Shown here: piece after piece, positions 6,933 through 45,102 of the stretch
How positions within the stretch are numbered: the first letter of the stretch is position 1
Layout of the letters: each line of letters opens with the position of its first letter
NCBI GenBank assembly: GCA_040380225.1
Contig: JBEIJN010000003.1
Coordinates: 26,306 to 90,305 of the forward strand
Source of the DNA: Verrucomicrobiia bacterium
GTDB lineage: Bacteria; Verrucomicrobiota; Verrucomicrobiia; Chthoniobacterales; UBA6821
Direction of reading: 5' to 3'
DNA length: 64,000 bases
The notes under the pieces: generated by a model
Told to the model about the DNA's origin: nothing
Database searches by the model: none
Seen by the model: only the letters and a program-made list of their open reading frames with translations
Position numbers and translations under genes: made by a program

Positions 6933-8624
6933 TTACTTCTTCCCTTGGCCTGGACGATACTCCTCCTCGGCGGCGGAGAGTGCCGCGCCGAAGCTGACCA
7001 TGTCCTCGCCGCTCTTGACGGTCTCGAGCGCCTCGCTCTCCTTGCGGAGTGCTTCCTCGCTGTAGCCGGTGGCCTTGATGGAGAGTCCGAGACGACGCTC
7101 GGTCTTGTCGATCTTGATGACGCGGGCCTCGACCTCCTGGCCGGGCTTGAGGACATCCTTGACCTTCTCGACACGGTCCTCGCTGATCTGCGAGATGTGG
7201 ACGAGTCCGTCGATGTCGCCGGGGAGTTCGATGAAGGCGCCGAAGTTGGCGATCTTGGAGACGGTTCCCTTGACGAGATCGCCGACCTTGAACTTGCCCT
7301 CGATCTCCTTCCAGGGATCGGTCTCGAGCTGCTTGACGCCGAGGCTGATGCGCTGGTTGGCCTTGTCGATGTCGATGACGACGGCATCCACCTCGTCGCC
7401 CTTCTTGAGGACTTCGCTCGGGTGGTTGATCTTCTTGGTCCAGCTGAGGTCGGAGACGTGCACCATGCCGTCGATGCCCTCCTCCAGCTCCACGAAGGCG
7501 CCGTAGGCGGTCATGTTGCGGACCTGGCCGCGGACCTGCTTGCCGATGATGTAGCGCTGCTCGATCTCGTCCCAAGGGTTGGGCTCGAGCTGGCGGACGC
7601 CGAGGGAGATCTTCTGATCAGCCTTGTTGACGCCGAGCACGACGGCCTCGATATCCTGACCGAGGGTGAGGACATCCGAAGGACGGGTGATGCGCTTGGT
7701 CCAGGAGAGCTCGGAGACGTGGATGAGTCCCTCGATTCCCTCCTCGATCTGAACGAACGCGCCGTAGGGCATGAGGTTCGTGATCTTTCCGCTAATCTTC
7801 TGGCCGATCGGGAAGCGCTCCTCGATGCGGTCCCAGGGATTGGACTGGAGCTGCTTGAGGCCGAGGCTGATGCGTTCCTTGTCCTTGTTGATCTCGAGGA
7901 CGACGACGGTGAGTCGGTCGCCGGGCTTGACTGCCTCGCTCGGATGGGTGAGGCGGGCCCAGGACATGTCGGTGATGTGGAGGAGTCCGTCGATGCCGTC
8001 GAGATCGAGGAAGGCCCCGAAGTCGGTGATGTTCTTGACGGTTCCCTCGACCTTGTCGCCGGCGCTCATGGTGCCGAGGAACTGCTGGCGGCGCTCACTG
8101 CGCTCGGCCTCGATGAGTTCGCGACGGCTGAGGACGACGTTCTTGCGGTCCTCGTTGAGCTTCACGATCTTGAAGTCGTAGGTGTTGCCCACAAACTGGG
8201 TGAGATCCTTCGGGGGATTGATGTCCACCTGGGAGGCGGGGAGGAAGGCCTCCACACCGACGTTGACGATCAGGCCGCCCTTCACGACGGACTTGACGCG
8301 GCCCTTGATGATGCCCTCGGCCTCGAACAGCTTCACGATCTTGGACCAGTTCTGGCGCTGCGAAGCCTTCTGCTTGGAAAGAATGACCATTCCCTGATCG
8401 TTCTCGAGGCGCTCGAGGAGAACCTCGACCTCGTCTCCGACCTGGATTTCGTCCGGATCATCGAATTCGGATGCGGAGACCACACCCTCGGACTTGTAGC
8501 CGATGTCGATGAGGAATTCCTTGGGGCGCTTCTCGAGGATGTGCCCCTTGACGATGCTGCCTTCGCGGTAGTTTTTGACCGAGGCGGCGATGAGTTGCTG
8601 AAGATCAGCCATTGATGTTGTCAT
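6933..8624 (-). CDS. rpsA: 30S ribosomal protein S1
   Basis: Six tandem S1 (OB-fold) repeats, each with GxVxxIxxFGAFVxL and GLxHxSExS patterns. Start placed at MTTSMADLQQ (8624); 8612 is an alternative. Confidence 0.9.
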   Translation of the reverse strand: MTTSMADLQQLIAASVKNYREGSIVKGHILEKRPKEFLIDIGYKSEGVVSASEFDDPDEIQVGDEVEVLLERLENDQGMVILSKQKASQRQNWSKIVKLFEAEGIIKGRVKSVVKGGLIVNVGVEAFLPASQVDINPPKDLTQFVGNTYDFKIVKLNEDRKNVVLSRRELIEAERSERRQQFLGTMSAGDKVEGTVKNITDFGAFLDLDGIDGLLHITDMSWARLTHPSEAVKPGDRLTVVVLEINKDKERISLGLKQLQSNPWDRIEERFPIGQKISGKITNLMPYGAFVQIEEGIEGLIHVSELSWTKRITRPSDVLTLGQDIEAVVLGVNKADQKISLGVRQLEPNPWDEIEQRYIIGKQVRGQVRNMTAYGAFVELEEGIDGMVHVSDLSWTKKINHPSEVLKKGDEVDAVVIDIDKANQRISLGVKQLETDPWKEIEGKFKVGDLVKGTVSKIANFGAFIELPGDIDGLVHISQISEDRVEKVKDVLKPGQEVEARVIKIDKTERRLGLSIKATGYSEEALRKESEALETVKSGEDMVSFGAALSAAEEEYRPGQGKK

Positions 8625-10424: not shown

Positions 10425-11063
10425 AAGCCTTGGTTCTCTTTGAAATCGTCGTCAGGATGGCGATGAGCTCATCACATTCCCTGCTGAGTTCCTTGGTTTT
10501 CAGAAGCGGAAGAATGTCTGATTCAACCAGCAAATCCAACCAGTATGCGGTTTCATCGAGTTCTTTCAGGCAATCCCCGATCTTGGCAATGAACTCGTTT
10601 CTCGATCGGGATCGATTGGCTTCACGATAATTCGCTCCCACGGAAGTACCGGATCTCAGAACCTGTTTTCCCAGAGTTTGTGCCAGGGTATTTTTCGGAA
10701 GGGCGCTATAGAGCCTGATCACCCTAAGGAACCGCTGATTAAATCGCATAGAGGCCGTTGCGGGAAGAATGGGCCGCGGGCAAGGCGGCTTTGCGGGCGC
10801 ATCCCCGCAGTGGGCTGTAACCGCAAAGCCAACACAGCCCCCGGCCGGTTATCTCCGCAACCCGGAGGGCTGAAGCCATTTGTCGATTTTTCTGGCGTTG
10901 CTCGCTCGGGCGAGACCGCTGCGGGTATCGCCCAGCACTCGCGCCTTCAAAAATCAGCAAATGCTCTTCAGCGGCCTTCATGGGATTTAATCAGCGGTTC
11001 CCTAAGGGCGAATGTCTTCGTCCTAGCGGATAGGTCGGCGGCTGGTTTCTTTTCATCATTCAT
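10405..11063 (-). pseudogene. Four-helix-bundle protein gene (23S rRNA intervening-sequence protein / Avd-like, TIGR02436 type), interrupted by a 276-bp element
   Basis: The N-terminal piece (11063-11003) encodes MNDEKKPAADLSARTKTFAL. The C-terminal piece (10724-10405) encodes RVIRLYSALPKNTLAQTLGKQVLRSGTSVGANYREANRSRSRNEFIAKIGDCLKELDETAYWLDLL. Joining them after removing 278 nt gives a 126-aa in-frame product with the family pattern. Confidence 0.8.
10727..11002 (-). mobile_element. 276-bp non-autonomous TIR element (MITE-like), copy A, flanked by TA (10725-10726 and 11003-11004)
   Basis: About 95% identical by manual alignment (14 substitutions, no indels) to 43850-44125 in the opposite orientation. 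It has roughly 28-bp imperfect terminal inverted repeats (GGGAACCGCTGATTAAATCCCATGAAGG) and no credible ORF. Confidence 0.8.
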
Positions 11064-19434: not shown

Positions 19435-19693
19435 TGCCTGGTCGGGGACGACCGGCAGATAATTGGGCTGTTGGGATCGGAAGTAGACGCTAGGGGGTTA
19501 GGCTCTAGGCTTCTAGGATCTGAAGAGAGACTTTCCCTCAATTTGTTAATCAGATTGCCTGGCGCCATCTTGGTGAACGCTCCGGATCTGTTGCCATGGT
19601 TCCATTGCACAATCCGGGGTAATCGAAAAAGGCCGATCGAGCCGTTCCTTCGTTGCCCCGGGGAGTGCGGTATGATACTCAATTCCTTTGGCA

Positions 19694-19765
19694 GACCCCG
19701 TAGTTCAACGGATAGAATAGGAGTTTCCTAAACTCTAGATGGTGGTTCGATTCCACCCGGGGTCA
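19694..19765 (+). tRNA. tRNA-Arg (anticodon CCT)
   Basis: Manual cloverleaf: acceptor GACCCCG/CGGGGTC, D arm GTTC..GAAT, anticodon stem GGAGT/ACTCT with loop TTCCTAA, T arm GGTGG-TTCGATT-CCACC, discriminator A. CCA is not encoded. Confidence 0.9.
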
Positions 19766-19769
19766 GTTT

Positions 19770-20231
19770 TTATGGTTCCGGGTCAGATTCCGGTTGAGCC
19801 GTCGTGCTCTTTGCAGTCGTGGTCTTTGCAGTCGTGGTCTTTGCAGTTGTCGCCTTTGCAGTTGAGGTCTTTGCAGTCGTGGCCGCTGTAGCCGCTGGCT
19901 TGGGTTCGGGCTTCAGGTTAATGGTCATGGTTTGGGCCTTTTGCTTGGCTTCCATCATCTTCATTCCCTTGGCGGAGAAGGCCCTTTCGTAGAGTTTCCT
20001 CAGGTCAACCTCGCTGATTCCGTAGACGTCACTTAGATTCAGGCTTGGGAGGTCGGTCTTGAGGGCTTCAAAATGTTCTTTGAACACCTCCTTCTGGGCC
20101 TCGACTTTTGCTTTCTTGTCATCTTCTTCTTTCTTCAGATCTGCGGCGGTTTTTACTTTGGTTGCCGCGTTCAGCGGGGAGGCAGTGATTGCAAGAAGGA
20201 GGGGGCAGATAATGAGGAGGATGTGTTTCAT
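19770..20231 (-). CDS. Secreted protein with a C-terminal (T/A)TAKT tandem repeat
   Basis: Start at MKHILLIICPLLLAITASPLNA (signal peptide). The C-terminus reads TAKTSTAKATTAKTTTAKTTTAKSTTA, encoded by 15-bp tandem repeats at about 19800-19880. Confidence 0.6.
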   Translation of the reverse strand: MKHILLIICPLLLAITASPLNAATKVKTAADLKKEEDDKKAKVEAQKEVFKEHFEALKTDLPSLNLSDVYGISEVDLRKLYERAFSAKGMKMMEAKQKAQTMTINLKPEPKPAATAATTAKTSTAKATTAKTTTAKTTTAKSTTAQPESDPEP

Positions 20232-20298
20232 GATACGCTTCGGTAAGATTGGACGGGAAATTGAGCGGGTCACTGTCAACAATTCTTCCATTCATTGC

Positions 20299-43187: not shown

Positions 43188-43558
43188 CCCGGATTTTGTA
43201 TTTAGGGAACCGATGCGAAGAGTTAAAAGGGTTGGCTCCTCGCTGTTTCAATGGGGTGAACAAAGGAATCAGTGAAAAATCAGAAAACAGGAAAACAAGA
43301 GGTGATACCACCGAGGAAACAGTCGAGGCCCATAACCGAGCTTGCGTAGTCACTCATTCGACCAGCCTCAGCATGCCACAGCAATCGCATTCATGACCAC
43401 TCCAGCAAGTTCTTCCTGCTTTCCTGCTTTCCAGATTAAAAAACTCCCCGTCGGCTTTTAACCGTTTAAACAGCTCAACTTTTTAACCCGATCGCCATGC
43501 ACCATACAGGTGAACGCTTCAGATATGTTTTCATGGTTCCATTGCTAAAAAACCCGCT

Positions 43559-44412
43559 GTGAATCCCATGAAGCCGCTGGCACGTTCCTTCTTCAAGCGG
43601 GACGCGGTGCTCTGCGCCCGTGAGTTGATCGGATGCACGCTGGGTCTTGCGGGAACCTCCGGCGTCATTGTCGAGACCGAGGCCTATGCGGCCGAGGGTG
43701 ATCCCGCCTGCCATACCTGGAATCGGCAGGGAGCACGCGATTTCGTTTCCAGCAATGCCCCCGGAACCGCCTATGTCTACCTGAACTACGGGATGCATTG
43801 GCTCTTCAACCTGCTCGTGAAGGGAGGCGAGCGGGATGGTTTTGTCCCAGGGAACCGCTGATTAAATCCCATGAAGGACGCTGAATAGCATTTGCTGATT
43901 TTTGAAGGCGTGAGTGCTGGGCGATACCCGCAGCGGTCTCGCCCGAGCGAGCAACGCCACAAAAATCGACAAATGGCTTCAGCCCTCCGGGTTGCGGAGA
44001 TAACAGGCCGGGGGCTGTGTTGGCTTGGCGCTTACAGCCCACTGCGGGGATGCTCGCGCCAAGCCGCCTTGCCCGCCGCCCATTCTTTCCGCAACGGCCT
44101 CTATGCGATTTAATCAGCGATTCCCTAATCAGGGCCTTGGAGCCGCTCGGTGGAGTCGACCTGATGCAGGAGCGCAGGCGGCGCGGGAAGGTGGAGGAAC
44201 TCTGCAATGGTCCCGCCAAGCTCACCCAAGCGCTCGGGATCACTGGTGATCACCATGAAGTCGACCCGCTCTCGGCAAAGGGATGGGTCCTGACGGAACC
44301 CCGGTCAACGGTCGCCACGATCACCTCGACGCGGATCGGAATCTCCCAAGCTACCGACTATCCGTGGCGCTTCGTCATGAAGGGGAGTCGCTGCGTGAGC
44401 GTTCCTGTGTAG
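43559..44412 (+). pseudogene. DNA-3-methyladenine glycosylase (MPG/AAG family, PF02245) gene interrupted by a 276-bp element
   Basis: The N-terminal piece ends ...LLVKGGERDGFV (codon GTC at 43844-43846), then runs into the element and stops. The C-terminal piece resumes at 44125 with LIRALEPLGG...NGPAKLTQALGI...RIGIS...PWRF. Removing 278 nt rejoins GFV|LIRALEP in frame. Confidence 0.85.
43850..44125 (+). mobile_element. 276-bp non-autonomous TIR element (MITE-like), copy B, flanked by CA (43848-43849) and TA (44126-44127)
   Basis: TIRs are GGGAACCGCTGATTAAATCCCATGAAGG and, at the other end, the reverse complement of GGGAATCGCTGATTAAATCGCATAGAGG. The interior is GC-rich and hairpin-dense. It is the inverted homolog of 10727-11002. 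Confidence 0.8.
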
Positions 44413-44502: not shown

Positions 44503-44616
44503 TTACTTGCTTTTGCAAGGGGCGGGGTTCGTGCAGCACTGCTTGTGGCAGCATGCGCCGAGGGTAAGGGAAGCCACCGCGAGGGCGACGACCGCTGCGA
44601 TCTTGGTGATGGTCAT
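44503..44616 (-). CDS. Small Cys-rich lipoprotein (37 aa), below the ORF-track size cutoff
   Basis: Hand translation gives MTITKIAAVVALAVASLTLGACCHKQCCTNPAPCKSK. AGGAGG lies 8 nt upstream of the ATG, and there is a signal peptide plus a lipobox-like LGAC. A terminator lies downstream. Confidence 0.65.
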   Translation of the reverse strand: MTITKIAAVVALAVASLTLGACCHKQCCTNPAPCKSK

Positions 44617-44798
44617 GATATAGTTCGCCTCCTTTCTCAGCTGGTTGCTCTGAGTGAAAACATAACCCCCGATGCTGTCGGAACCAATGCGAAAGATCTA
44701 ACGAAGACGCTTAGGAAAAAGTGAAAAGTTGAAAGGTGGAAAAGTGGGAAAGGTCCGCGTTGATGGCCGAGTGCGTGAAGGGATAGGGAAAGAAAAAA

Positions 44799-44874: not shown

Positions 44875-44988
44875 TTACTTGCTCTTCACGCTGGTGGCGG
44901 GAGCGGGAGCCTGCTTGCTGGCGCAGGCACCGAGGGTGAGGGTTGCGGCCGCGAGGGCGACAACTGCTGCGATCTTGGTGATGGTCAT
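44875..44988 (-). CDS. Small lipoprotein (37 aa), paralog of 44503-44616
   Basis: Hand translation gives MTITKIAAVVALAAATLTLGACASKQAPAPATSVKSK. It has the same RBS context and signal peptide as its neighbour, but the mature part has diverged. Confidence 0.65.
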   Translation of the reverse strand: MTITKIAAVVALAAATLTLGACASKQAPAPATSVKSK

Positions 44989-45102
44989 GGAATATTTCGC
45001 CTCCTTTCTTTGCTGGTTGCGTTGTCGGGAAATTAAAGCCGACAGCCCCCGTCACAAAGAAAATTTCCTGATTTTTTTGCGAGGTGCCCGAAATTCCCAA
45101 AA

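Follow-up and report, generated by a model that had tools for sequence, protein, structure and literature searches.

An IS5-family miniature inverted-repeat transposable element very probably interrupts a methylpurine-DNA glycosylase gene in a Verrucomicrobiia contig

What has split an otherwise undamaged DNA repair gene in two, and is the splitting segment ever removed so that the gene can work? This question is raised by a 64-kb stretch (64,000 nucleotides; hereafter the window) of contig JBEIJN010000003.1 from a Verrucomicrobiia bacterium, in which a gene for a methylpurine-DNA glycosylase of the MPG/AAG family is broken by 278 nt of foreign, strongly folded sequence. The original prediction for this locus described a 276-bp element of IS630/Tc1-mariner type flanked by TA, and left it open whether the insertion is very recent or the insert is removed at the DNA or RNA level. 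Our analysis indicates that the insert is very probably a transposable element of the miniature inverted-repeat type (MITE) from the IS5 family (IS5 group), which landed in the glycosylase gene recently and broke it.

The N-terminal open reading frame (ORF) starts at GTG 43559 or ATG 43568 and ends at 43861. It follows the glycosylase sequence as far as LLVKGGERDGFV (...GGERDGFV; last gene base, 43846), continues through four foreign codons (PGNR) and reaches a stop codon at 43859-43861. The protein resumes at 44125 in another frame as LIRALEPLGGVDL... (LIRALEPLGG...) and is terminated at 44410-44412. The break point, the early stop and the change of frame were thus confirmed from the ORFs as they had been described. 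When 43847-44124 (278 nt) were deleted in silico and 43846 was joined to 44125, a 188-aa protein was obtained that covers positions 1-180 of the 181-position Pfam profile PF02245 (methylpurine-DNA glycosylase) with an E-value of 1.3e-51, and a search of a large protein collection returned several 188-aa proteins that are 91-94% identical to it. In an alignment of 13 MPG sequences, the two halves abut at GFV/LIRALEP with no gap, the junction residues G91, F92, V93, L94, I95, R96 and A97 are invariant, and all family-invariant columns are kept in both halves. No other lesion was found in either half when the restored protein was compared with its orthologues.

The orthologue with 94% identity is encoded on six contigs (L001-L006), in which the gene order is the same as in the window (YchF GTPase, NIF3, MPG, YkuD and Asd) and the insertion site is empty, reading GGTTTTGTC/CTAATCAGA, i.e. 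GTC/CTAA/TCAG. The uninterrupted junction in this empty-site form is GGTTTTGTCCTAATCAGG. The syntenic empty sites and the PF02245 match bear out the earlier proposal that removal of 278 nt rebuilds the gene exactly and that its halves are otherwise intact. Because the frame is shifted and translation stops four codons after GFV in what is a single-domain glycosylase, enzyme function should be abolished, and the locus would represent an MPG pseudogene that encodes 93 of the 188 residues.

As for the insert itself, the figure of 278 added nucleotides was correct, but the reading of these as a 276-bp element with TA flanks was not; comparison of many copies resolves them into a 274-bp element and a 4-nt target copy (Table 1). 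When the flanks of all copies were lined up, the element proper was found to start with GGAA and to end with TTCC. Its inverted-repeat arms can be followed over 35 nt (43849-43883 and 44092-44126, 83% complementary), and 24 of the 29 terminal positions pair with each other (helix 1), in good agreement with the imperfect terminal inverted repeats (TIRs) of about 28 bp that had been anticipated. Four occurrences of the 19-nt terminus were counted in the window, compared with an expectation of 0.02, and two of them bound a second copy of the element in the opposite orientation (Table 1). The element was also rightly called hairpin-dense, as its minimum free energy is -140.7 kcal/mol (z -8.2) on the plus strand and -153.3 kcal/mol (z -10.0) on the minus strand. 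The insert has no coding signal: variable columns are distributed over the three codon positions as 45/36/31, without any third-position excess, and this flat pattern fits the prior view that no credible ORF is present.

Frame 1 of the minus strand of 43851-44124 is free of stop codons in most of the 274-bp copies, yet it shows no excess of third-position substitutions. It is not a gene, and looks like a by-product of composition and structure.

Table 1. Coordinates of the interrupted gene, the inserted element and related elements
Feature	Positions	Strand	Remarks
MPG/AAG (PF02245), N-terminal half	43568..43846	+	Residues 1-93; tblastn with the restored protein, 100%
Left target-site copy	43847..43850	+	CCAG (expected CTAA, from the L001-L006 empty sites and family flanks)
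MITE, IS5 family, 274 bp	43851..44124	+	TIR stem with two hairpins of ~105 nt, and a small CCC/GGG hairpin in the centre
Left TIR	43851..43879	+	GGAACCGCTGATTAAATCCCATGAAGGAC; pairs with 44096-44124 (24 pairs)
Internal hairpin 1	43880..43983	+	Alignment columns 30-135, helices 2-5
Internal hairpin 2	43991..44095	+	Stem GGCTTGGCGC/GCGCCAAGCC; alignment columns 143-250, helices 7-10
Right TIR	44096..44124	+	...TCTATGCGATTTAATCAGCGATTCC
Right target-site copy	44125..44128	+	CTAA; the coding sequence restarts with these bases (CTA ATC = L I)
MPG, C-terminal half	44125..44412	+	Residues 94-188 and stop codon; tblastn, alignment
Second MITE copy	10728..11001	-	95% identical; CTAA flanks at 10724-10727 and 11002-11005; 279-nt inverted repeat, 95%
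Length variant in L128	4777-5410		
Length variant in L157	462-816		
Length variant in L179	1316-1664		
Length variant in L125	2343-2688		
Length variant in L175	1082-1388		
Short MITEs with the GGAAnCGCTGATTAAATC terminus			Oscillospiraceae metagenome-assembled genome: L010, L019, L034, L039, L061, L078; Ruminiclostridium: L017, L038; Agathobacter: L015, L113; Treponema: L073; other metagenome-assembled genomes

The insert belongs to a family of repeated elements. In the window, a PF05635 four-helix-bundle gene (minus strand, ~10405 to ~11063) is interrupted by the second copy, and removal of this copy together with one CTAA yields a 126-aa ORF that matches PF05635 across the junction FAL/RVI (E-value, 1.5e-19). 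A DUF3368 PIN-type gene in L057 harbours a further copy. When one genome per species was scanned with the 18-nt terminus GGAAnCGCTGATTAAATC, at least 115 stretches matched, and these contained at least five full-length copies (87-94% identical) in four metagenome-assembled genomes (MAGs) labelled Chthoniobacterales, Spartobacteria or Verrucomicrobiota. In a scan of metagenomes, a 20-nt piece of the right end matched 73 further loci, about 27 of which hold full-length copies of ~274 bp, and many of the others hold length variants. Overall, the full-length copies from the window, the Chthoniobacterales/'Spartobacteria' MAGs and lake metagenomes are 87-96% identical. The mobile nature proposed for the insert is therefore backed by the second window copy, the copies in MAGs and metagenome loci, and the empty sites in L001-L006, and we conclude that this MITE family has recently been active in freshwater Chthoniobacterales-like Verrucomicrobiota.

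Most of the other copies are located between ORFs or within about 50 codons of an ORF end, in both orientations; ORF calling without a gene finder is noisy in DNA of 59% G+C. The copies are 121 to 730 bp long, and 274 bp is the most common length. The longer forms contain extra hairpin-forming segments at a few fixed points of the two hairpins, and a ~34-nt module is present twice in the 634-bp form.

The flanks of these copies define the target duplication. Because the element is palindrome-like, many of the 74 element calls count one copy on both strands; in 48 of the calls, the 4-nt flanks are the same on the two sides. These identical pairs include CTAG (18), CTAA (11), TTAG (10) and TTAA (5), giving 44 perfect YTAR pairs. 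In most copies, the left and right tetranucleotides carry matching bases at positions 1 and 4. Since a TA duplication would not predict such agreement of the outer positions, the duplicated unit must be 4 nt, and the TA target duplication given by the original prediction has to be replaced by a 4-bp YTAR duplication.

IS5 is documented to insert at YTAR with duplication of 4 bp (PMC5009759), and this signature, together with a terminus that is common to elements with IS5 transposases, is the ground for our assignment of the MITE to the IS5 family. A 1200-bp element in an alphaproteobacterial MAG (L079, 1627-2826) has the same terminus and is flanked by CTAG on both sides. Over 20 nt, its left end, GGAATCGCTGATTAAATCCC, differs from the start of the MITE only at one variable position. 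The element contains two overlapping ORFs with matches to DUF772 and DDE_Tnp_1 and, when these are joined, the product scores 336.6 bits against the NCBIfam model NF033581 ('IS5 family transposase'), for which the cut-off is 140. The same terminus was also found directly upstream of an IS5-type transposase gene in Cupriavidus (L095) and in Methylobacter (L020). In tblastn searches of the 195 retrieved loci, an IS5-type transposase was present only in L079, L095 and L020. The L079 transposase (1698-2665) is split into ORFs 1698-2246 and 2204-2665, which is the result of either a frameshift that made it a pseudogene or programmed frameshifting.

Among the matches listed, dozens of other short YTAR-flanked elements in other phyla are bounded by the same terminus when up to three mismatches are allowed (Table 1). 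These unrelated MITEs are 89, 107-108 or 159-161 bp or of other sizes. This suggests that the terminus may mark one very widespread IS5 subgroup that has repeatedly spawned MITEs in Bacillota, Spirochaetota, Verrucomicrobiota and Proteobacteria.

By analogy with the way in which IS5-family elements move, the ~20-bp termini would be bound by a DDE transposase of the IS5 group, either encoded at another place in the genome or present in the past; this enzyme would join the element to a YTAR site cut with a 4-nt stagger, and repair of the cut would then duplicate the tetranucleotide. In the glycosylase gene, such trans-mobilisation by an IS5-group transposase would add 278 nt, shift the frame and end translation four codons after GFV. 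The timing can be approached through the coding sequence on either side. The ratio of nonsynonymous to synonymous substitution rates (dN/dS) between the two halves of the split gene and the L001 orthologue is 0.161 (dS, 0.21), and that of the adjacent intact NIF3 gene is 0.162. Constraint on the split MPG gene has thus not been detectably relaxed, which fits an insertion that is recent relative to the divergence from the nearest sequenced relatives. A recent insertion accounts for the undamaged state of both halves, and no removal mechanism is needed. Of the two explanations offered by the original prediction, therefore, the recent insertion stands, on the strength of a dN/dS equal to that of the neighbouring gene, whereas no sign of DNA- or RNA-level removal was found. 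Strain-dependent disruption of coding sequences by MITEs is known (PMC10969869).

Several observations weigh against this reading of the locus. No IS5-type transposase was detected by tblastn in the 64-kb window, where the lack of a transposase partner had already been pointed out, or in about 70 MITE-carrying metagenome loci, and the autonomous elements that share the terminus were found, among the matches listed, in Proteobacteria and not in Verrucomicrobiota. The closest copy found (L161) is 95.6% identical, so that no source copy is present among those found. The filled left junction, in any state of the target copy, gave no hits in the metagenome scan. Finally, the left target copy differs from the right one. 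The right copy is the tetranucleotide of the empty site, and the change from CTAA to CCAG on the left consists of two transitions in four bases, which create CCAGG. Elsewhere in this copy, private substitutions number no more than a handful, and two changes within 4 nt are unexpected for a very recent insertion. Possible sources of CCAG are conversion by a CTAG-flanked copy followed by a change of CTAGG to CCAGG, imprecise integration and a sequence error.

The same mismatch enters into the choice between the IS5 and the IS630/Tc1-mariner assignments. If only the nucleotides that adjoin GGGAAC...TTCCC are considered, these are CA and TA, so that a 276-bp element that duplicated TA would require just one substitution at the left junction, and TA is moreover the core of every YTAR flank. 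This account is nevertheless very improbable, because the agreement of positions 1 and 4 in the 44 perfect YTAR pairs is not predicted by a 2-bp duplication, and because the autonomous elements with this terminus encode DDE transposases of the IS5 family and not of the IS630 family; among the matches listed, the terminus was not found on any element with an IS630-type transposase. A comparably improbable suggestion is that a working gene is regained by removal of the insert, be it through RNA processing (self-splicing or of another kind) or through programmed, precise excision of DNA. The lesion-free halves, their low dN/dS and the high degree of structure of the insert would be in line with removal, but a low dN/dS is expected anyway for an insertion that is young relative to a dS of about 0.2, and the hairpins fold equally well on both strands. 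The family behaves like a DNA transposon: target duplications are present, and the copies, in either orientation, lie for the most part in intergenic DNA or at the ends of genes. Because the target copies do not match, a precise deletion would have a direct repeat of no more than 1-2 nt to guide it. A scan of the locus against Rfam with E-values up to 10 gave chance-level matches only (the best at 18.8 bits, versus a gathering score of 55), with no group I or group II intron or other Rfam family, and the same scan of the longest variant examined (634 bp) yielded nothing meaningful.

Three specific readings were considered and rejected. A self-splicing group I or group II intron is not supported by any match to the conserved intron RNA core in Rfam; an in-frame palindromic insert such as those of Rickettsia does not agree with a length of 278 nt, which is not a multiple of three, and with a host frame that stops after four codons; and a translational bypass of 278 nt would far exceed known hops.

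An assembly artefact, in which a repeat was misjoined into the gene during metagenome assembly or binning, has slightly more to be said for it and is still highly unlikely. The source is probably an assembly from an uncultured organism, the element is a multi-copy repeat, and the filled site was seen in no other assembly. The exact products of the N-terminal fragment (with either start), the C-terminal ORF and the YkuD neighbour are not on record, and an identical NIF3 gene was found on a 2-kb contig that ends before the MPG junction. However, a chimera would not be expected to place a complete element exactly at a YTAR site, to retain the right tetranucleotide and to add exactly 278 nt, and an equally precise anatomy is seen in the second window copy. 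We thus retain the IS5-family MITE insertion as the preferred explanation of the locus.

The internal hairpins of the MITE deserve separate consideration. We aligned 19 distinct full-length copies (mean column identity, 91%) and analysed 96 predicted pairs, in which 97.6% of the cells contain standard pairs. Both partners have changed in 15 of the 96 pairs, compared with 5.9 ± 1.4 in shuffled alignments (none of 500 shuffles reached 15) and with 1-4 pairs when the partners were slid. In hairpin 2, pairs 181-214, 184-211 and 185-210 each occur as two to three pair types. The clearest example is the stem GGCTTxGCyz / z'y'GCx'AAGCC, in which x:x' occurs as G:C, C:G or T:A, and yz as GC, GG, AC or AG opposite the matching partner in each case. 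In the interior, nucleotide diversity is 0.097 in paired columns and 0.183 in unpaired columns, while that of the paired TIR columns is 0.018; loops are hypervariable, and stems are kept. Pairing of the hairpins is thus maintained across the copies.

What this maintenance means is less clear-cut. Most likely, the hairpins matter for the element itself, through the stability or mobilisation of its DNA or through the stability of a read-through transcript, and they are unlikely to matter for the interrupted gene. A more far-reaching proposal, that the hairpin core is a functional structured nucleic acid (an RNA or DNA signal carried by the MITE) whose spread reflects its function and not plain selfish transposition, draws on the number of compensatory pairs relative to shuffles, on the roughly halved diversity of paired interior columns, on the stable stems with hypervariable loops, and on the optional hairpin modules at fixed positions, which resemble expansion segments. 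In this form, covarying hairpins that accept modules at fixed points would be a selected RNA with a role of its own or a mobilisation signal of single-stranded DNA. We regard both the general proposal and this specific form of it as doubtful. The counts of G-U cells are 107 on one strand and 92 on the other, a symmetry that does not discriminate between RNA and DNA as the cause, and no Rfam match was obtained. Without any selection, the appearance of compensatory change can arise through template-switch mutation within a quasi-palindrome or through conversion between copies, and stable stem-loops are a general prediction for MITE transcripts (PMC10969869). If the proposal were true, the hairpin-bearing MITE family would be more than a stripped-down insertion sequence (IS).

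The MITE can be compared with several known systems. With IS5 and IS5-like ISs, such as E. coli IS5, ISPa16 and IS2000, it shares the 4-bp YTAR duplication and termini starting with GG, and its autonomous relatives with the same terminus have the appropriate size (about 1.2 kb) and the DUF772, DDE_Tnp_1 and NF033581 matches. It differs from them in being 274 bp long and lacking a transposase, and its terminus is different from that of E. coli IS5, which starts with GGAAGGTGCGAATAAG. The nearest annotated transposases, encoded on plasmids and annotated as IS5-like ISPa16 or IS2000, are just 54-57% identical to the L079 transposase. IS5-derived MITEs as such are known, namely BrickBuilt and MITEPgRS of Porphyromonas gingivalis and ATR of Neisseria meningitidis, which is associated with ISNme1 (PMC4596501). 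Like these, the present element is short and non-coding, has TIRs that match IS5-family ISs, and has a modular or repetitive interior that is unrelated to a transposase gene (PMC4596501). However, their TIRs read GAGACC... and their interiors consist of tandem direct repeats, in contrast to the nested hairpins found here, and their reported target duplications are variable, whereas a clean 4-bp YTAR duplication is seen here.

Correia elements of Neisseria and other MITEs that duplicate TA are likewise small TIR-bounded elements that fold into hairpins, but they duplicate TA, whereas four bases are duplicated here next to an IS5-type terminus. Rickettsia palindromic elements (RPEs) offer a parallel of another kind, as they are palindromic repeats inside protein-coding genes and one stop-free frame exists here; unlike the present insert, with its 278 nt, its stop after four codons and its lack of a codon-position signal, RPEs are in frame and are translated with the host protein.

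Insertion of a MITE into a gene is an ordinary kind of event, and the interest of this case is modest: the maintenance of hairpins by compensatory changes and the occurrence of one terminus across phyla are its less usual aspects, and neither alters the basic picture. For annotation, the locus should be recorded as a pseudogene interrupted by an IS5-family MITE, and not as a mariner-like TA element or an intron, and gene callers will yield truncated or spurious ORFs wherever the 274-bp family lands. The host would be left without an AAG-type alkylpurine/hypoxanthine glycosylase, which could slightly alter its repair capacity.

Directly upstream of the MPG start codon lies a 72-nt motif (43474-43545), and the orthologous contigs likewise have it conserved upstream of MPG. 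The motif recurs with 78% identity at 19537-19608, upstream of a tRNA-Arg(CCT) gene (19694-19765), and is also present in L081, L114 and L135. It may act as a promoter or a leader, or may be a small repeat. A scan for promoter and terminator consensus sequences around the MPG locus gave nothing above shuffles.

Other repeats were observed in the window. Downstream of the glycosylase gene, two paralogous 37-aa ORFs on the minus strand (44503-44616 and 44875-44988), with a lipoprotein-like signal (MTITKIAAVVALA..LTLGAC), lie in a 110-nt direct repeat (44539-44648 and 44911-45020) whose units are 84% identical. Three direct repeats of ~103 nt with a period of 261 nt and an identity of 69-77% occupy 7281-7905. 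In addition, a 15-nt tandem repeat of about 6-8 units (19783-19902) is located within a minus-strand ORF (19770-20291) for a secreted-looking protein of 173 aa, in which it gives rise to TTAKT-type repeats close to the C-terminus.

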